From NCBI GenBank assembly GCA_050949885.1, contig JBMNGO010000007.1, forward strand, positions 103,549 through 167,548: a stretch of DNA of 64,000 nt, written 5' to 3'. The position numbers and the translations under genes are program-made. The notes under the pieces were generated by a model, which saw only the letters and a program-made list of their open reading frames with translations, ran no database searches and was not told the origin of the DNA. Below, piece after piece: positions 1 to 43,226 of the stretch (the stretch's first letter is position 1; each line of letters begins with the position of its first letter). This stretch comes from Syntrophomonadaceae bacterium (GTDB taxonomy: Bacteria > Bacillota > Syntrophomonadia > Syntrophomonadales > Syntrophomonadaceae).

Positions 1-130
1 CGACATTTAACAACAATTATCAAAATTTTGTGATATATTTAGAATATATAATTCAATAATGAATTAGAAATACTTTTGGGCGTGGTTCTATCTGCTAATT
101 GGCATTGGTATTAGAAAGGAGTAGGTCACT

Positions 131-1630
131 GTGAATAATCAAGGGCCTGAAAAAAGAATGACTGCTAATACGCTAACGGATCAGGATTCAAGTGATATTT
201 TGCTTACTCAACAGTTAGCCCAGGCTCAGAAGCTGATTAAGGAATTGGAAACTATTATCGATTTAGCTTCAGTTGGAATCTGGGTAACCGATAGGACAGG
301 GGTAACCATTATAGCCAATCAGGCTGCCTGTAGGATCAAAGGAGTAACCAAAGAACAGGTTATTGGCAAGAACATATTTCAACTGGTTACAGAAGGGGTA
401 ATTAATCATTCAGCCACAACAGAAGTCTTGAAAAGAAAATGCCCGGTCAGTATTTTGACCAATGTTTGCAACGGTAGGCGGATCCTGGTGGAGAGCGTTC
501 CAATATTTGATGAAGAAGATAATATATCCAGCGTTGTAAGCAACTGCATTGATGTTACTGAGCTCAATTTTCTTAAAGAACAGCTGGAGCATCACATAAG
601 GATAAATTCCCGCTATCAGAACGTGATAGAAAATTTGCAGATGCAGCAAGGAGATTATAACATTGTCTCCCGCAGCCCGCAAATGAGAAATATACTGGAA
701 TTGGCCTTACGGGTGGCAAAAACTGATTCAACCGTGCTGGTTACCGGTGAATCGGGGGTAGGGAAAGAAGTGATTGCCAAGTTATTACATTATAATAGCA
801 ATAGAAAGAAAGAGCCATTTATTAAGATAAACTGTTCAGCTATTCCAGAAGCCCTTTTTGAGTCTGAACTGTTTGGATATGAAGGAGGTTCATTTACCGG
901 GGCCAAAAAAGAGGGCAAAATGGGCCTGGCGGAAATGGCTAACGGGGGGACTCTTTTCCTGGATGAGATAGGTGATATGCCTTTGAACTTGCAACCTAAG
1001 CTCCTGGAGTTTTTGCAGGATCAAACCTTTTTGCGCGTTGGGGGGAATAAGTCCATCCAGGTGAATACAAGAGTAATTGCTGCCACCAACCGTGATTTGG
1101 TTAAACTTATTGAGGAAAAGCAATTTCGGGAGGATCTATATTACCGTTTGAATGTGATACCAATTAGAATTCCTCCGTTGCGGGAAAGGCCGGAGGATAT
1201 CTACTTTTTAGCCAGGCATTTTTTAAAAGAGTTTAATAATAAATACTCCCAAAATCATTTTTTGAACCAGGATGCCATAGATATTCTGGAAGGATATGCA
1301 TGGCCAGGTAATGTAAGAGAACTGGAAAACCTGATCGAAAGGCTGGTCCTAATTACCGAAGAAGAAGTTATTAGACGGGAACACTTGCCAGCCCAGTTGA
1401 CAGGAAGACAGGGCTGTATATGCAATGTATCGGTAAACGGCTTAATGCCCGTTGAAAAAGCCATAGCAGAGGTTGAAAGACAGTTATTTGTTAAAGCATA
1501 TAAACAATACAAAAACACTTATCGGGTGGCTGAAATTCTAGGGGTCAGCCAGCCCACAGTAGTTCGCAAACTGCACAAGTATGGGGTGGTAAATAACCTG
1601 TTGAATGATGCTAATAATTTTGGCCATTAG
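131..1630 (+). CDS. sigma-54-dependent transcriptional activator (PAS sensor + AAA+ + Fis-type HTH)
   Basis: 499-aa ORF with a GTG start 9 nt after AGGAG. Has Walker [22 protein letters not shown] (GAFTGA-type sigma-54 contact loop) and a C-terminal [19 protein letters not shown]. Confidence 0.9.
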
Positions 1631-2848: not shown

Positions 2849-3952
2849 GTGAAAGAAACAAAGTGTAGGTGTGGCAGGGTTAAAATGCCACAGGTAGGAC
2901 GGTGGATACCCAGGTCATGTAGGATGGTTTTATCTGTACTATTAATCAGTATTTTGGTGGTTAGTTCATCTGGTTGCTCTGATCAAGGAGGGCAGGACAC
3001 AGTTGAATTAAAACTGGCCCATTTTTTCCCGGCCAATCACCCGGCTGAGAAAGAGCTGATTCAGCCCTGGGCCGCAGCCATCGAAGAGGCTACTCAGGGT
3101 AAAGTGAAGATTATCAGTTACCCCAACCAGACCTTATTATCAGCTGATACTATTTATGAAGGAGTAGTAACCGGCGTTGCTGATATTGGTTTATCATGTT
3201 TTGCTTACACCCGGGGGCGGTTTCCCGTATTAGAGGTATTAGAGCTCCCCGGCATTATTTACGACAATTCCAAAGCTGCCAGCTATGTGGCATGGGAAAC
3301 CATTAGACAAATCAACCCGGCTGAAATTCAGGATACCAAATTAATGATGGTGTTAACTACCGGCTCGGGGGATATTTTCACCAGGGAACCGGTAAGAAAT
3401 CTGGCCGATCTAAAGGGCAAGGAAATAAGAGCAACGGGTTTGAGCGCCAGAACCCTGGAAATCTTAGGAGCTACCCCGGTTGCTATGCCCCAGTCCGATG
3501 CTTATGAATCCCTGTCCAAAGGTGTAGTAAATGGGAATCTAGGGCCGGTGGAAGTCTTAAAGGGCTGGAAACAGGCTGAAGTAACCGATTATCTGACCAA
3601 GACCCCGTTCCTTTACAACACAGTATTCTTCGTAACCATGAATCTGGATAAATGGAATTCACTGGATGCCGAAACCCAGAAGATTTTTGAGGATGCCAAT
3701 AATCAATTTTTTGCCGAAGTAGCGTCCAGTTTATGGGATAAACAGAATGAAGAGGCCTTGGACTGGGCAGTAAAAGAACAAGGGATCGAAGTAATCTCCT
3801 TGTCTCCGGAGGAACAGGACCTGTGGATTGAAAAAGTAAAACCGGTCCAAGAGGAGTATGTGGCCAAAATGAATCAAAGCGGTATTAACGGTCAGGAAAT
3901 CTTAGATACGGTAAAAAAATTGGCAACCGAATTTAACCAGCAGTTTCAATAG
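2849..3952 (+). CDS. dctP: TRAP transporter substrate-binding protein (DctP family), lipoprotein
   Basis: GTG start after AAGGAGGAG. Lipobox-like VVSSSGC. DctP-like sequence, followed by Q and M subunit genes. Confidence 0.85.
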   Translation: MKETKCRCGRVKMPQVGRWIPRSCRMVLSVLLISILVVSSSGCSDQGGQDTVELKLAHFFPANHPAEKELIQPWAAAIEEATQGKVKIISYPNQTLLSADTIYEGVVTGVADIGLSCFAYTRGRFPVLEVLELPGIIYDNSKAASYVAWETIRQINPAEIQDTKLMMVLTTGSGDIFTREPVRNLADLKGKEIRATGLSARTLEILGATPVAMPQSDAYESLSKGVVNGNLGPVEVLKGWKQAEVTDYLTKTPFLYNTVFFVTMNLDKWNSLDAETQKIFEDANNQFFAEVASSLWDKQNEEALDWAVKEQGIEVISLSPEEQDLWIEKVKPVQEEYVAKMNQSGINGQEILDTVKKLATEFNQQFQ

Positions 3953-26688: not shown

Positions 26689-26889
26689 TTGGTTGTTACT
26701 GACACAGAGTGGGAAAGTATATTCATGGGACCAAAGGCGAAGTACCCTGACTTTGGGGATTATCGTTTCACTGGAGGATTTTACTCGACAATTGGTCTGG
26801 GTCAGGAATTTAAAGGTTATCATTATAAATTGGTAGTGGCAGTTATCCCTGCAGAAGAACTGGAAGCCGAGCTAAGTGATTGGGAGTAG
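26689..26889 (+). CDS. small hypothetical protein or gene fragment
   Basis: 66-aa ORF with plausible composition but a TTG start, no clear RBS and an in-frame stop immediately upstream. Confidence 0.25.
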   Translation: MVVTDTEWESIFMGPKAKYPDFGDYRFTGGFYSTIGLGQEFKGYHYKLVVAVIPAEELEAELSDWE

Positions 26890-26928
26890 CGATATAGTAA
26901 AGTGAATCAGCAAAATAGCCAAAACAAA

Positions 26929-26953
26929 AGAGGGCTCACACCCTCTATTTTTC
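26929..26953. terminator. bidirectional intrinsic terminator closing the tRNA-Leu/array transcription unit
   Basis: AGAGGG-CTCACA-CCCTCT hairpin flanked by AAAACAAA and ATTTTTCTT. On the minus strand it is followed by TTTGTTTT. Confidence 0.65.
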
Positions 26954-26958
26954 TTGTA

Positions 26959-27627
26959 TGGTGCCAGAGGTGGGACTCGCCTGTACCCGGAGGGTGAACC
27001 CACACGCCTCGCGGCACACGATTACTTATTTTCTTATGGTGCCAGAGGTGGGACTCGCCTGTACCCGGAGGGTGAACCCACACGCCTCGCGGCACACGCC
27101 AGGTGCCGGGTGGGACCGCCTGTCCCGGAGGGTGCCCCCGCCTCGCGGCCCGTCTTACTGGTGCCAGAGGTGGGACTCGCCTGTACCCGGAGGGTGAACC
27201 CACACGCCTCGCGGCACACGATTACTTATTCTCTTATGGTGCCAGAGGTGGGACTCGCCTGTACCCGGAGGGTGAACCCACACGCCTCGCGGCACACGAT
27301 TACTTATTTCTCTTATGGTGCCAGAGGTGGGACTCGCCTGTACCCGGAGGGTGAACCCACACGCCTCGCGGCACACGATTACTTATTCTCTTATGGTGCC
27401 AGAGGTGGGACTCGCCTGTACCCGGAGGGTGAACCCACACGCCTCGCGGCACACGATTACTTATTCTCTTATGGTGCCAGAGGTGGGACTCGCCTGTACC
27501 CGGAGGGTGAACCCACACGCCTCGCGGCACACGATTACTTATTCTCTTATGGTGCCAGAGGTGGGACTCGCCTGTACCCGGAGGGTGAACCCACACGCCT
27601 CGCGGCACACGATTACTTATTCTCTTA
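26959..27627 (-). repeat. tandem array of tRNA-Leu 3'-half-like units (8 units of 78-79 nt plus 1 diverged GC-rich 60-nt unit)
   Basis: Unit boundaries on + coordinates are 26959, 27037, 27159, 27237, 27316, 27394, 27472 and 27550. The diverged unit is 27099..27158. Each unit ends in ...GTCCCACCTCTGGCACCA, identical to the 3' end of the adjacent tRNA. Confidence 0.9.
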
Positions 27628-27712
27628 TGGTGCCAGAGGTGGGACTCGAACCCACACGCCTCGCGGCACACGATTTTGAGTCGCGCTCGTCTGCCAATTC
27701 CGACACTCTGGC
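27628..27712 (-). tRNA. tRNA-Leu (anticodon CAA), class II, CCA encoded
   Basis: Reverse complement folds as GCCAGAG-TG-TCG(GAATTGGCAGA)CGA-G-CGCGA(CTCAAAA)TCGTG, then a 13-nt variable arm, then GTGGG(TTCGAGT)CCCAC-CTCTGGC-ACCA. Confidence 0.9.
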
Positions 27713-27740
27713 TGATTTATTCACTTCCGATGCAACCATT

Positions 27741-27769
27741 ATTATAATTGTCCCCTGAACCCTTGTCAA
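27741..27769 (-). promoter_or_regulatory. consensus sigma-A promoter of tRNA-Leu(CAA)
   Basis: Minus strand reads TTGACA (27769..27764), a 17-nt spacer, then TATAAT (27746..27741), about 28 nt upstream of the mature tRNA 5' end. Confidence 0.75.
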
Positions 27770-27935
27770 CCAAAGATTCGCTCTATCACCTAAAGGGCGG
27801 CATAAGCTGTACCTGCTGTCATAAGAAGGCAGATTTGGGATAAAGGATATTTGAGGGTTAATGGCGAAACATATCAAGTAAATTGGATTTTGTCTCCCCA
27901 TTTCTTGACAATTTATCATAAGGGAGAAGTTAGGA

Positions 27936-28517
27936 ATGATATCGGAAGAATTGTTAGTTAAGCAGAGCCGTCAGGGAGATCTGAAGGCTTTTGAAGAACT
28001 TGTATTGCTTTATCAGGATAAAATATATGCACTGGCTTATAGATACCTAGGTAATGAAGAAGATGCTAATGATCTGGCTCAAGAGGCATTTATCAAGGCT
28101 TTTAGATCATTATCCTCATTTAAGGGGGAATCAGGTTTTGGCACCTGGTTGTTCCGTATAGCCAGCAACCTATGCTTGGACGAACTGCGAGGAAGGAAAA
28201 GACGGATCAAATGCCTTTCCCTGGATGAGCCGGTAATTACATCCCAGGGTGAGGAACTACCCAAAGAAATACCGGATCTCTCAGCAGCGGTGGATGACAA
28301 ATACGAGAAAAAAGAGCTCTCATTATACATACAGAAACTACTTAACGAGTTAAAACCAGATTATAAGGCAATCATCGTATTAAGGGACATGATGGGTTTT
28401 AGTTACGAGGAAATAGCAGAAATTTTGAAATGTTCTCAAGGCACTGTAAAGAGTCGTCTTAATCGCGCCAGGGCCATTTTAAGAAAAAAGTTGTTAAAGA
28501 GGGAACTTTTGCCTTAA
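27936..28517 (+). CDS. ECF-type RNA polymerase sigma factor (sigma-70 family)
   Basis: 193 aa. Region 2 (DLAQEAFIKAF, FGTWLFRIASN) and region 4 HTH (SYEEIAEILKCSQGTVKSRLNRAR). Confidence 0.9.
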   Translation: MISEELLVKQSRQGDLKAFEELVLLYQDKIYALAYRYLGNEEDANDLAQEAFIKAFRSLSSFKGESGFGTWLFRIASNLCLDELRGRKRRIKCLSLDEPVITSQGEELPKEIPDLSAAVDDKYEKKELSLYIQKLLNELKPDYKAIIVLRDMMGFSYEEIAEILKCSQGTVKSRLNRARAILRKKLLKRELLP

Positions 28518-28551
28518 TACCTCGTCTAAAGAAACGAGGAGGATATACTTA

Positions 28552-29730
28552 ATGAAATGCAGGCATATTAGAGAATTTTTCTCTGTTTATCTTGACAAAG
28601 AGGCCAATGAAACCGTAAATGATGCTGTTACAGCTCATATTGCGGTTTGTCCAAAATGCCGCGAAGAACTTGAACAATTAAAGAAAATAATTGATAGCCT
28701 GCAGAAAACGGAATCAATACAGCCCCCGCCTGACTTCTCCCGGCTGGTTATGAACCGTTTACGGGAAGAAAAATATGGACTTTGGTCTTCTAACCGCACC
28801 AAGGGACGTAAAAGGGCCGGAGGCTTTATTGCTGCGGTGGCCGCAATAGCCCTGATGGTAGGTATCGGCACCAGCAGTTATTTTGGTGAGATGTGCGAAA
28901 AAATAGCGGCTGCGTGGGCCAAGAAGAATCCAGAGAAGAAAGCTGCTACTAATATTTCCGTTGACGATATACTCAACCGTCTTAATCTTCCCGACATTTT
29001 ACAAAACAACGAAAAAGGGGAGGAAGCCGGGTCTGAAAAGACGGATAATGCCCAAGAAAGTCAAGTGAAAGTAGCCACCCGAACGGTTCCACAGGAGAAT
29101 GAGCCCGTCAACTCAGGTGGTTCCGAAACAACTGATCCGGTCATTCCTTTAGAAGCAGAGGAAAATCCCCCAACTACCCCTGAACTGGCAGAAGAGAATC
29201 CCATTACCATGACTCTGTTGGAAGCAGAGGAGGAGCCCGACGCCTCCACGGAGCAGGCAATTGAGAAAAATAGACTGGTGTTTTCCCAGGAAATAATAGT
29301 AAAAGATATACCTGAAGCTGTTGTAGGAGCAGAAAAGATTGCTATTGATTTGGGTGCCTCATGTACCTATCTGTCGCCTGAACAACTGCTGGCATCCTAT
29401 CCTGATAAAAAGTACAGCGGAATAATAGTCACCCTGGACAGGGAGAAAGAGAGCAGCTTTTTCACCCAGCTTGAAGCAATGGGAGCCGTTACTGACCTGG
29501 GTGAAGAAATAGTGGACATGTCCGATGAATATTTGGAAATAGACAAGAAACTGGAATCCATTGCCGGCGAACTTATTGAAATCTCCAGGAAGAGAGATTT
29601 AAAGAAAGAGGATCAGGATAGATTGCAAGAATTGAATATTGATTTGCAGGAAGCCCTTAATCACCGAACTGAGTTGGATAAGCTATTAACTACTTCAACT
29701 ATCTATGTTTATTTTGCCGAACAGTATTGA
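28552..29730 (+). CDS. anti-sigma factor (zf-HC2) with single TM segment and large extracytoplasmic domain
   Basis: N-terminal H-x3-C-x2-C (AHIAVCPKC), a central TM segment, and a position immediately after the ECF sigma gene. Confidence 0.75.
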   Translation: MKCRHIREFFSVYLDKEANETVNDAVTAHIAVCPKCREELEQLKKIIDSLQKTESIQPPPDFSRLVMNRLREEKYGLWSSNRTKGRKRAGGFIAAVAAIALMVGIGTSSYFGEMCEKIAAAWAKKNPEKKAATNISVDDILNRLNLPDILQNNEKGEEAGSEKTDNAQESQVKVATRTVPQENEPVNSGGSETTDPVIPLEAEENPPTTPELAEENPITMTLLEAEEEPDASTEQAIEKNRLVFSQEIIVKDIPEAVVGAEKIAIDLGASCTYLSPEQLLASYPDKKYSGIIVTLDREKESSFFTQLEAMGAVTDLGEEIVDMSDEYLEIDKKLESIAGELIEISRKRDLKKEDQDRLQELNIDLQEALNHRTELDKLLTTSTIYVYFAEQY

Positions 29731-29863
29731 TCCCTTAAGGACGAAAAATCGTACCATAGGTATAATGGCCTTACAGGCAGGGATATGGTCCCTGCCTATT
29801 GAATTTTTGGTCAAGTAGTATATGTTTGATAATGGACATAATAATAACCAAAGGTGGTGCAAG

Positions 29864-32479
29864 ATGAATCAAAAGAAGCTCTTAGTTATAGATGGAAACA
29901 GCTTGCTGTTTCGTGCCTTTTATGCCTTGCCCCTGCTGCACACCAGTGATGGTGTTTACACTAACGCTGTTTACGGTTTTTTGACCATGTTTAAAAAGGT
30001 AATGGATAATGAGAATCCCAGCCATATAGTGGTGGCCTTTGACAAGGACAGGCAAACCTTCCGGACCCAGCTATTTGACGCCTACAAAGCTAACCGTTCG
30101 GCGCCCCCGGAGGAATTAAAGGGGCAGTTTCAGCTGGTGCGTGAGGTACTGACTGCCCTTAACGTGGATTACCTGGAGGTGCCGGGATACGAAGCCGATG
30201 ATATTATTGGCACCCTGAGTCAAATGGCCCAGGACGATGAAATGGACTGTATTATCGTGACCGGCGATGGTGATGCTTTGCAGTTGGTATCTGAAAAAGT
30301 CCAAGTGATTATGATCAAAAAAGGCATCAGTGAAATAGAAAAATACGATATAGCCAAGGTAAAAGAAAATTGGGAAGTAACCCCGGATAGGATGATAGAT
30401 ATAAAAGCTTTGATGGGGGACTCCTCCGATAATATACCTGGAGTACCCGGAGTGGGTGCCAAAACCGCTATTAAGCTTATCAAGGAATTTGGCAGCCTGG
30501 AGAACCTTTATGCCAGCCTGAGCCAGGTGAAAGGGCAAAAACTGGTGGAAAGGCTGGCTGCAAACAAAGACCAGGCCTATATGAGCAGGGAGTTGGCTAC
30601 TATTGTACGGGATATGAACCTCAATTGCAGGTTAGCAGATTTTAATGTGAAGGAACCCCATAGAGAAGAACTGATGCAGCTGTACAAACGACTCCAGTTT
30701 GGCAATTTTTTAAAACTGCTGCAAGAGCAGGATGCCCACCGGGTCTATGACCCCGTAGAGTTCCAGGAAACCATAGAAATAAAAAGGCTGAACTCGGAAA
30801 GGGAAGTAAAGGAACTTATTGACACAATACCGGACGGGGATAAGGTGGCAGTATACTTTGAAGTTGACCACCGGCATCCTATGTGGGCGCAACCTATCGG
30901 TTTGTTCTGGGAATGGCAGGATCAGGTGTATCAATTGCCCCTGCAGGATAACCCCCGGGACAGGCTGGAATGGGTCAGGCCTTTCCTGGCGTCCGAGCAA
31001 ATAAAAAAGATATTTCATAACGCTAAATTTGCCGAAGTACTGCTAATGCGTTGGGGAATCGAGCTTAAGGGAATTTATGGCGACACCCTGCTGGCTATTT
31101 ATGTTGATGACCCCTCTTTTGATGGCGAATCACCTGTGAACAGCATGAAAAGGTATCTGGGTATAGACCCGGGAGACCGGCCGGCAGCCATTGCGGCCAA
31201 TATCCGTAGACTGTATAATGCCTTACTGGAACGTATACCCCAGGAACTCAAAGACTTGTTGGCCCAAGTGGAGCAGCCCTTATCCACCATATTAGCCCAT
31301 ATGGAGTTTTGGGGAGTAAAAGTGGAAAAATCCACCCTGCACGAAATTTCAATAGAACTGGCATCCCGAATCCGGGAATGCGAAAAGGCCATTTTTGACC
31401 TGGCCGGATATGAGTTTAATATCAATTCTCCCAAGCAATTAGGCAAATTGTTATTTGAAGATTTGGGACTAAAGGCCAGCAAGAAGACGAAAACCGGTTA
31501 TTCCACAGGTGCTGAGGTGTTAGAAAGCTTGTATGGCAAGCACCAGATCGTCCCATATCTTATGGACTACCGTTTAATAAGCAAGTTAAAATCTACTTAT
31601 GCAGATTCTCTGCAGGCCCTGATTCATCCCGATACAGGCAGGGTACATACCATATTTAAGCAGGCCCAAACCGCAACAGGAAGGCTCTCCAGCGTTGAGC
31701 CCAATTTACAGAATATTCCTATAAGAATGGAAGAAGGCCGCAGAATTAGAAAAGCCTTTACAGCCCCGCAAGATGGGTGGCTCTTGGTTTCTGCTGACTA
31801 TTCCCAGATTGATCTGCGTTCTTTAGCCCATATATCGGGAGATGAGGTATTAATCCAAACCTTCCGGGAAAAGGTGGATATCCACGCTAGAACAGCATCG
31901 GAAATATTCCATGTTCCCCTGCATCAGATTAACGAGGATTTGCGGCGCCGGGCCAAAGCGGTCAATTTTGGCATTATTTATGGGATCAGTGAGTACGGTT
32001 TGGCTAGGGATACCGGAGTCAGCCGGATGGAAGCCAGAGAATACATAAAAAAATACCTGGACACCTATCCCGGGGTTAGACAATACATGGAAGACATAGT
32101 TGCCTTTGGGAAAAAATACGGCTATGTGGAAACCATATTAAAACGCCGCAGATATATTCCGGATCTTAATGCCTCCAATAAAAATGTACAGGCTTTTGCC
32201 CGCCGTATGGCGTTGAATACCCCCATTCAAGGCACATCAGCCGATATTATTAAACTGGCCATGATTAAAGTATTCCGGGAATTGAAAAGACAGGGATTGG
32301 AATCCCGCCTGCTGCTGCAGGTTCATGATGAGTTGGTTTTGGAAGTGCCCAAGAAAGAGCTGGATGGGGTAGCTCAACTATTAGAGGATTGCATGCAAAA
32401 TGCTTATGAATTAAAAGTACCCCTGGATACAACCATAAAAATAGGGGAGAACTGGTATGACCTAAAACCCTATAGATAG
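29864..32479 (+). CDS. polA: DNA polymerase I
   Basis: 5'-nuclease N-terminus (LLVIDGNSLLFRAFYAL), polymerase motifs (DYSQIDLR, RRAKAVNFGIIYG, QVHDELV). The start is moved to the ATG at 29864. Confidence 0.95.
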   Translation: MNQKKLLVIDGNSLLFRAFYALPLLHTSDGVYTNAVYGFLTMFKKVMDNENPSHIVVAFDKDRQTFRTQLFDAYKANRSAPPEELKGQFQLVREVLTALNVDYLEVPGYEADDIIGTLSQMAQDDEMDCIIVTGDGDALQLVSEKVQVIMIKKGISEIEKYDIAKVKENWEVTPDRMIDIKALMGDSSDNIPGVPGVGAKTAIKLIKEFGSLENLYASLSQVKGQKLVERLAANKDQAYMSRELATIVRDMNLNCRLADFNVKEPHREELMQLYKRLQFGNFLKLLQEQDAHRVYDPVEFQETIEIKRLNSEREVKELIDTIPDGDKVAVYFEVDHRHPMWAQPIGLFWEWQDQVYQLPLQDNPRDRLEWVRPFLASEQIKKIFHNAKFAEVLLMRWGIELKGIYGDTLLAIYVDDPSFDGESPVNSMKRYLGIDPGDRPAAIAANIRRLYNALLERIPQELKDLLAQVEQPLSTILAHMEFWGVKVEKSTLHEISIELASRIRECEKAIFDLAGYEFNINSPKQLGKLLFEDLGLKASKKTKTGYSTGAEVLESLYGKHQIVPYLMDYRLISKLKSTYADSLQALIHPDTGRVHTIFKQAQTATGRLSSVEPNLQNIPIRMEEGRRIRKAFTAPQDGWLLVSADYSQIDLRSLAHISGDEVLIQTFREKVDIHARTASEIFHVPLHQINEDLRRRAKAVNFGIIYGISEYGLARDTGVSRMEAREYIKKYLDTYPGVRQYMEDIVAFGKKYGYVETILKRRRYIPDLNASNKNVQAFARRMALNTPIQGTSADIIKLAMIKVFRELKRQGLESRLLLQVHDELVLEVPKKELDGVAQLLEDCMQNAYELKVPLDTTIKIGENWYDLKPYR

Positions 32480-43141: not shown

Positions 43142-43226
43142 GTCGGAGTGGTGGAACGGGCAGACACGTACGTTTGAGGGGCGTATCCTTAGCCGGGTGC
43201 GGGTTCAAGTCCCGCCTCCGACACCA
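43142..43226 (+). tRNA. tRNA-Leu (anticodon GAG), class II, CCA encoded
   Basis: Folds as GTCGGAG-TG-GTG(GAACGGGCAGA)CAC-G-TACGT(TTGAGGG)GCGTA, then a 13-nt variable region, then GCGGG(TTCAAGT)CCCGC-CTCCGAC-ACCA. Confidence 0.85.

Follow-up and report, generated by a model that had tools for sequence, protein, structure and literature searches.

The DNA analysed here, referred to as the window, is a stretch of 64,000 nucleotides on contig JBMNGO010000007.1 of a Syntrophomonadaceae genome assembly (GCA_050949885.1), whose source is an uncultured, fatty-acid-degrading anaerobe. On its minus strand, a tRNA-Leu(CAA) gene is followed directly by an array of tandem repeats, each of which contains a 3′ portion of that tRNA (Table 1). 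ARAGORN and Rfam both identified the class-II tRNA that the original prediction had reported from the sequence, and the promoter upstream of it, described there as perfect, matched the consensus throughout. When the minus strand behind the tRNA was cut at every GGCACCA, the 85-nt tRNA was followed by units of 78, 78, 78, 78, 79 and 78 nt, a 122-nt composite, a last unit of 78 nt and a terminator. These cuts exactly reproduced the eight predicted unit starts. Tandem Repeats Finder (TRF) assigned the array a period of 78 nt with 99% matches and a score of 974. The sole minus-strand terminator of the array region was located by a terminator scan at 26946..26929 (7-bp stem), beyond the last unit as predicted, and the trailer between the last unit and this terminator reads TACAAGAAAAATAG.

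Table 1. Positions of the tRNA-Leu(CAA) gene, its flanking signals and the repeat units in the window
Feature	Position	Strand	Evidence or remark
Promoter, sigma-70-type, TTGACA-17-TATAAT, serving tRNA-Leu(CAA)	27741..27769	-	12/12 consensus match
tRNA-Leu(CAA), intact class-II, CCA encoded	27628..27712	-	ARAGORN; Rfam RF00005, 51.5 bits, E = 7.8e-10
Units 1-6 (together 27159..27627)	27550..27627, 27472..27549, 27394..27471, 27316..27393, 27237..27315 (79 nt), 27159..27236	-	TRF, GGCACCA cuts; identical save one extra spacer A in unit 5
17-nt T-loop insert ACCCTCCGGGTACAGGC, example copy	27570..27586	-	further copies at 26979, 27057, 27179, 27257, 27336, 27414, 27492
Degraded unit, most likely a consensus error (standard unit + following spacer minus 34 bases)	27099..27158	-	global alignment
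tRNA-like part of the unit after the degraded stretch; own spacer absorbed by the degraded stretch	27037..27098	-	GGCACCA cuts, alignment
Last unit, spacer variant TAAGAAAATAAGTAAT	26959..27036	-	variant shared by independent assembly L001
Native tRNA trailer + intrinsic terminator (TACAAGAAAAATAGAGGGTGTGAGCCCTCTTTTGTTTT)	26921..26958	-	terminator scan; homology to relatives' trailers

Read on the minus strand, a unit consists of TAAGAGAATAAGTAAT, CGTGTGCCGCGAGGCGTGTGGGTTC, ACCCTCCGGGTACAGGC and GAGTCCCACCTCTGGCACCA in this order, or, in tRNA terms, of a 16- or 17-nt A/T-rich spacer, positions ~38-56, a 17-nt insert and positions 57-76 including CCA. The 5′ acceptor strand, the D arm and the anticodon are missing. 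The insert lies between C56 and G57, where it splits the T loop, and is absent from the true tRNA. The insert-in-T-loop pattern gave eight matches with 0.00 expected, and the insert itself occurred in eight exact copies, with 0.17 expected even when three mismatches were allowed. No source of the insert was found at up to three mismatches in the tRNA's own 5′ half or elsewhere in the window. The standard units differ from one another only by a 1-nt spacer indel (GAAATAAG) and by a G/A change in the spacer of the last unit. The unit comparison, pattern match and cuts thus agree with the predicted anatomy, a 3′ tRNA portion with a 17-nt T-loop insertion whose copies vary by one base change and one indel in the spacer.

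An interpretation as a tRNA gene cluster was rejected because the units are not complete tRNAs and only one tRNA was detected in the block by ARAGORN and Rfam; the units matched no Rfam family at E<=10. A CRISPR array was likewise rejected because entire units, spacers included, are identical, and no cas genes were found among ten ORFs (open reading frames) of the window scanned against Pfam, most of them downstream of the array. The original prediction had set both interpretations aside on the same grounds, and we concur.

The 122-nt composite contains a stretch that had been described as a diverged, GC-rich unit. When this stretch was aligned globally with a standard unit plus the next spacer, it proved to lack 34 bases (17 A, 15 T and 2 G) but showed no substitution and no insertion. 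It is therefore not diverged in the sense proposed but shortened, with A or T accounting for 32 of the 34 missing bases. To our knowledge, no biological process removes only A/T bases. Because the deletions are A/T-biased, unit 5 carries a homopolymer indel and short-read assemblies of the same organism contain standard units only, the stretch is most likely a consensus error in the repeat rather than a real variant, and the array most plausibly consists of about nine standard units. Other repeats in this long-read assembly may carry similar consensus or polishing corruption.

The corrupted unit, which lost nearly only A/T bases, and the 1-nt homopolymer indel, typical of long-read consensus error, would also be expected if the array or its copy number were an assembly artefact, and the short-read assemblies collapse to 2-4 units or break within the array. 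We nevertheless regard an artefact as extremely improbable. The independent assemblies of this species are short-read metagenomes from JGI and Logan, on whose contigs, from several samples, the flanking proteins (the ECF sigma factor and a 233-aa lipoprotein-like ORF) are 100% identical to those of the window. One contig (L001) contains the tRNA, four units and the terminator, another (L002) the tRNA, two units and the terminator, and further contigs (L003-L005 and L009-L017) end within a unit. Because the tRNA-unit, unit-unit and unit-terminator junctions all recur in these assemblies from different samples, we conclude that the array is real; in addition, a homologous array is present in a long-read metagenome-assembled genome (MAG) of another species (L066, see below). 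The exact copy number of about nine comes from the present assembly only, and short-read collapse can account for the spread of 2, 4 and about 9 units across assemblies. The G/A spacer change of the last unit is also present in L001, and C or G occupies this position in other strains. Strain polymorphisms were seen only in the spacer; the tRNA-like part had none.

The tRNA-Leu(CAA) gene is divergent from genes for an ECF sigma factor, an anti-sigma factor and polA, an arrangement conserved in about 46 Syntrophomonadaceae loci. In most relatives, the CCA end is directly followed by TA(G)AAAAATAGAGGG...CCCTCTTTT, which is the trailer with terminator found behind the last unit in the window. The array thus separates the tRNA from its native terminator. 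The spacer of the units resembles the first ~14 nt of the native trailer in array-less relatives, which fits a tandem duplication of the segment from tRNA position 38 to +16. An origin from strong-stop cDNA of a reverse transcriptase, for which the boundary at position 37/38 is suggestive, was rejected: no reverse-transcriptase gene was present among the ORFs scanned, and the insert would be left unexplained.

Units of this kind were found in 3 of the ~50 Syntrophomonadaceae species examined. The PolA protein of the window is 53-68% identical to those of the surveyed members of the family, with S. palmitatica the closest (68%), and the three array species occupy separate deep branches of the PolA tree. 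The second species is represented by L066, whose PolA is 60% identical to that of the window. Its tRNA is followed by three 80-nt units with 100% identity to one another, and the sole terminator stands after the array. The L066 units carry their own species' variable arm, GCCTAACAGC (CTAACAG), as opposed to GCCGCGAGGC (GCGAGG) in the window, and about 11/18 aligned spacer positions are identical between the two. The L066 insert, ACCCTTCGGGTACAGGC, differs by one change, which lies in the loop of a small ACCC/GGGT hairpin. On its plus strand (3382..3570), opposite the tRNA, each 80-nt unit of L066 also contains a promoter-like TAGGCA-17-TATAAT (10/12), a sequence contributed by the A/T-rich spacer and not seen in the units of the window.

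The third species, which is deep-branching, is known from two contigs (L080 and L081) found by a metagenome scan in which the insert was fixed. It has a single unit with a 113-nt period and a different tRNA-Leu(CAA), with acceptor GCCGAAG. The order in L081 is the tRNA, a 57-nt trailer with an 11-bp-stem terminator, TGTGTCCCACATGCCCGGGCCGTACC-TGTGGGTTC-ACCCTTCGGGTACAGGC-GAGTCCCACCTTCGGCACCA, and the same trailer and terminator again. This unit carries its own species' acceptor strand (CCTTCGGCACCA) and an insert identical to that of L066, and has no intact variable arm. The orthologous tRNAs in L066 and L081 are, like that of the window, preceded by a perfect TTGACA/TATAAT-type promoter. A 46-aa ORF right after the L081 unit (1137..1277) resembles, by eye and from the translation only, the N-terminal helix-turn-helix of an IS3-family OrfA transposase.

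When the tRNA end was fixed and the insert left free, the metagenome scan gave 0 matches in a collection that evidently contains no samples holding this organism. Seven further sigma-factor clusters, reached via the neighbouring ECF sigma factor, yielded no new arrays: in three of them tRNA-Leu(CAA) is directly followed by a terminator, and in the other four the contig has no tRNA or ends short. Two GTDB MAG contigs, L020 (JAQUXM010000143, at position 1) and L041 (JBEHWI010000014, at position 2), stop exactly at the tRNA-Leu(CAA) CCA. Such an end is the signature expected of a repeated tRNA 3′ end, either an array or an attachment-site (att) duplicate, and may hide repeats.

Protein coding by the repeats was rejected on the basis of these comparisons. 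The period is 78 nt in the window, 80 nt in L066 and 113 nt in the third species, and there is therefore no conserved reading frame. Because 78 nt equals 26 codons, long spurious ORFs cross the array at 26954..27679 (+), 27315..27758 (+) and 27300..27671 (-). These ORFs comprise 77-241 aa, and JGI gene callers annotated 72-77-aa 'genes' in the same repeat (L003/L004, 3..236). A homologous-protein search with the array ORFs returned nothing, and a search of protein representatives returned only unrelated repetitive proteins with 18-34% identity.

The comparisons show that the units come from each host's own tRNA and stay identical to it, as in concerted evolution through unequal crossing-over or gene conversion, and that they are homogenised within each array. 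The insert behaves differently from the spacer. It is 16-17/17 identical across the three species, which share only ~56-60% PolA identity, and its conservation equals or exceeds that of the functional terminator. It is kept in every unit of all three species and never enters the tRNA. Because the 17-mer is steady at 94-100% identity while the spacers drift and PolA is only ~56-60% identical, we infer that it is either under sequence-specific constraint or derived from a shared mobile source.

These observations bear on the alternative that the array is a functionless minisatellite in which a chance partial duplication of the tRNA 3′ end, with the insert as filler, expands and contracts, and in which any transcription is read-through noise. 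Such an origin would account for the missing array in most relatives, for copy numbers of 2, 4 and about 9 between assemblies (confounded by short-read collapse), for the lack of a structural or covariation signal in the units (described below) and for the deviating unit of the third species, which contains a terminator and lacks an intact variable arm. However, a neutral 17-mer should not remain 94-100% identical while PolA falls to 56-60% and the spacers to ~11/18, and the insert would tend to be lost through gene conversion from the tRNA, whereas all units in the three species retain it. We therefore consider a functionless minisatellite rather unlikely.

The other candidate is past site-specific integration. 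tRNA fragments beside tRNA genes usually come from integration (PMC9897764), and the array could represent the remains of such events at tRNA-Leu(CAA): att-type duplicates or a minimal cis-mobilizable element (CIME) from which the cargo was deleted and an att-like unit amplified. The 17-mer would then be an element-derived arm or core bound by integrase, and its conservation would reflect recent visits of related elements, not host selection. The patchy distribution across separate deep branches is in keeping with this explanation, as is the downstream side of tRNA-Leu(CAA), where no synteny was found between species. Crossovers in tRNA genes reportedly fall, in the sublocation classes that Williams distinguished in 2002, in the anticodon loop and the T loop; the start of the unit in the anticodon loop and its insert in the T loop would coincide with these two classical positions. 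Accessory-looking ORFs lie downstream of the L066 array, including one that is RelE/ParE-toxin-like by eye from its translation, and the short ORF downstream of the L081 unit looks, again by eye, like a fragment of an IS3-type transposase.

Several results argue against integration. The att duplicates of prophages, integrative and conjugative elements and genomic islands (attL/attR), and those of a CIME, resemble the window in that a tRNA 3′ portion is duplicated beside an intact copy, with boundaries in the anticodon loop or T loop and at a break point of synteny. In contrast, the window units are contiguous, occur as many identical tandem copies with no element between them, and have an upstream part that follows the host tRNA. 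The latter point was seen in the variable arm 5′ of the insert, which matches each host's own tRNA, unlike an arm borne by an element. The original prediction had already pointed to the lack of cargo between the units, and this was borne out. The 27 kb downstream of the array contain a GerA operon and genes for 3-hydroxyacyl-CoA dehydrogenase, pyruvate kinase, phosphofructokinase and DnaE, that is, core genes, and no integrase or second att copy was found in this region; no further copy of the tRNA 3′ end occurs within the 64-kb window. Neither the unit nor the insert matched a phage, plasmid or viral contig: four pattern scans of IMG/VR (with the unit, with any 12-25-nt T-loop insert in this tRNA end, and with the insert with or without its flanks) gave 0 matches, and in BLAST searches of phages and plasmids only the generic tRNA-Leu part of the array was matched. 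Identical spacers and periods of 78-80 nt are also unlike the traces of serial integrations. On balance, we consider an origin from integration unlikely.

A different kind of repeat was observed at the same tRNA locus in another Syntrophomonadaceae species, where repeated GGGGCAAGGGGACGGTTCTTTTGCC-type motifs stand right after the tRNA-Leu(CAA) terminator (L085 ~850..980 and L087 ~60..190). In L085, a Y1_Tnp transposase gene of IS200/IS605-type or RAYT-like character (22..810) lies beside these motifs. The motifs and the transposase could together form a REP/RAYT-like system.

The array had been considered unlike any described class of element. This statement proved too strong, because the 178-bp RtT repeats distal to tyrT/tyrV in Escherichia coli, its closest known counterpart, share its architecture; the window array is therefore not categorically new. 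The E. coli repeats have been known since the late 1970s, and we know of no described RtT equivalent outside enterobacteria. Re-derived from the K-12 genome (NC_000913.3), the E. coli locus consists of tyrV followed by 3.1 repeats of 178 bp, and Rfam calls four RtT elements at the tyrT locus (133-137 bits). Each E. coli unit contains CTTCGACCAAGGTTCGA, where tRNA-Tyr has CTTCGAAGGTTCGA, followed by 67 nt and the 19-nt 3′ end of tRNA-Tyr, AATCCTTCCCCCACCACCA, with CCA. The 178-bp unit of this locus (L082, 1286705..1287263) can thus be regarded as the 3′ part of tRNA-Tyr with a GC-rich insert of 67 nt in its T loop; by global alignment, there is a hint that this insert resembles the D and anticodon arms of tRNA-Tyr. 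Both rttR and tpr are annotated at the locus, and the CCA of the first repeat marks the annotated 3′ end of rttR. rttR is reported to be a stable RNA encoded by one repeat unit of the tyrT operon (PMC3318445, citing Bosl and Kersten 1991). A part in the processing of the adjacent tyrT transcript is ascribed to it, and the mode of action of RtT is still described as unknown (bioRxiv 10.1101/2024.07.17.603846).

In both systems, head-to-tail repeats lie on the tRNA strand behind a tRNA gene with its own promoter, and each repeat holds the variable-arm/T-stem 5′ part, a T loop split by an insert and, at its end, the 3′ segment of the parent tRNA with CCA. They differ in parent and host (tRNA-Leu(CAA) in Syntrophomonadaceae, tRNA-Tyr in Enterobacteria), in unit length (78 nt and 178 nt), in the site of the insert (between positions 56 and 57 in the window, after A58 in RtT) and in the tRNA 3′ end, which is a 20-nt GAGTCCCACCTCTGGCACCA after a 17-nt insert in the window and a 19-nt AATCCTTCCCCCACCACCA after a 67-nt insert in E. 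coli. The window array also has a higher copy number, copies that are 100% identical, and no small ORF comparable to tpr. No match to RF00391 was obtained (>=45 bits), and cmscan of 26700..28000 at E<=10 returned only the tRNA and two chance matches. The window array, which shares no sequence with RtT, is an analogue of it that is built alike, and not a member of the RF00391 family.

We propose that the array is an RtT-like pseudo-tRNA trailer array that arose by partial tandem duplication and is kept uniform by recombination, a reading to which we give about an even chance. Within it, the origin by partial tandem duplication and the upkeep by recombination are well supported by the sequence comparisons, and transcription and processing are inferred. 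In the proposed course of events, a segment from the anticodon loop of tRNA-Leu(CAA) (~position 38) to ~16 nt past CCA would have been duplicated in tandem. With its T loop split between C56 and G57 by the 17-nt insert, the duplicate is ruled out as a tRNA half. The array would then grow and shrink by slippage or unequal recombination between identical copies, and gene conversion would hold the tRNA-derived parts identical to the parent tRNA. Because it lies between the tRNA and the native terminator, the array should be transcribed from the tRNA promoter, which is strong and would drive it as a ~0.7-kb trailer. Since each unit ends in the tRNA acceptor 3′ strand and CCA, the enzymes of tRNA 3′-end maturation would be expected to cut this trailer into ~78-nt CCA-ended hairpin RNAs, an expectation modelled on the rtT RNA from the tyrT operon of E. 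coli.

The single transcription unit originally proposed, comprising the tRNA and the whole array, is predicted for the window and for L066, but in L081 the 11-bp-stem terminator separates the tRNA from the unit, and co-transcription is therefore not conserved. In the minimum-free-energy structure computed with RNAfold for the 62-nt core, the predicted extended hairpin was recovered: GUGCC.GAGG pairs with CCUC.GGCAC, UUC/GAG pairing extends the T stem, and a small ACCC/GGGU hairpin forms within the insert. The same fold pairs C74 and C75 and leaves no free CCA, although a free 3′ end had been part of the predicted minihelix. This fold was no more stable than shuffled controls (z = -0.23 and -0.38), and similar scores were obtained for the L066 unit (-0.44), the L081 unit (0.00) and the whole transcript (-1.0). 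A three-species alifold consensus contained 21 pairs, only one of which was compensatory. An RNA structure of the unit is thus possible but unproven.

The terminator that precedes the L081 unit, the shuffling result and the near lack of compensatory pairs all weigh against our proposal, as do three further points. The arrays occur in few species (3/~50) scattered on the tree, and vertical descent would need many losses. The units resemble RtT neither in sequence nor by covariance model, and the analogy is therefore architectural only. Finally, the function of RtT itself is poorly established.

Since the insert is nearly invariant even between very distant relatives, constraint seems to act on this part of the putative RNA, which would be exposed as a loop on an extended T stem and could be recognised by a protein or an RNA. 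The unit RNAs might, for instance, titrate a factor or influence the maturation of tRNA-Leu(CAA). The same conservation lends some weight to the idea, put forward in the original prediction, that the units act as decoys or sponges. A more far-reaching version is that the arrays encode a new family of multi-copy CCA-ended pseudo-tRNA-Leu hairpin RNAs, in which the invariant loop ACCCUYCGGGUACAGGC would serve as the recognition element. With ~nine copies released per transcript, these RNAs would titrate or guide a factor that recognises the T arms or 3′ ends of tRNAs; toxins, partner RNAs and enzymes of tRNA modification or processing would be candidates. They and RtT would then form a general class of tRNA-operon regulators built by T-loop splitting. 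This version is speculative, and we consider it quite unlikely.

Two further systems provide points of comparison for such a role. The 3′ external transcribed spacer (3′ETS) of the leuZ transcript is a single unstructured spacer that acts as a sponge for small RNAs (sRNAs) by base-pairing with known sRNAs. Although not itself a tRNA, it is freed from a primary tRNA transcript by the enzymes of tRNA processing, as is proposed here for the array RNAs, whereas the window units are repeated and have no known partner. The protein-sponge sRNAs CsrB and RsmZ, like the window array, display the same loop sequence on many repeated stem-loops. Unlike them, the window units derive from a tRNA and end in CCA; GGA motifs are absent from them, and no protein is known to bind them.

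On the upstream side of the tRNA, the genes for the ECF sigma factor, the zf-HC2 anti-sigma factor and PolA occupy 27936..32479 of the window. A second leucine tRNA gene, tRNA-Leu(GAG), lies ~10 kb further on at 43142..43226. This order is kept across Syntrophomonadaceae.

The array is a lineage-restricted and real feature of this family. It has practical consequences, because such arrays break short-read assemblies at a conserved tRNA locus, attract spurious gene calls and can be mistaken for att scars in genomic-island prediction. For the biology of the family, the comparison with E. coli indicates that an unrelated lineage independently built the same plan, in which a duplicated tRNA tail with an insert-split T loop was amplified in tandem behind its parent tRNA. 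The constancy of the insert across deep divergence argues for a recurrent, possibly functional architecture rather than a curiosity, and the Syntrophomonadaceae arrays provide a second system besides E. coli RtT in which to ask what such RNAs do.

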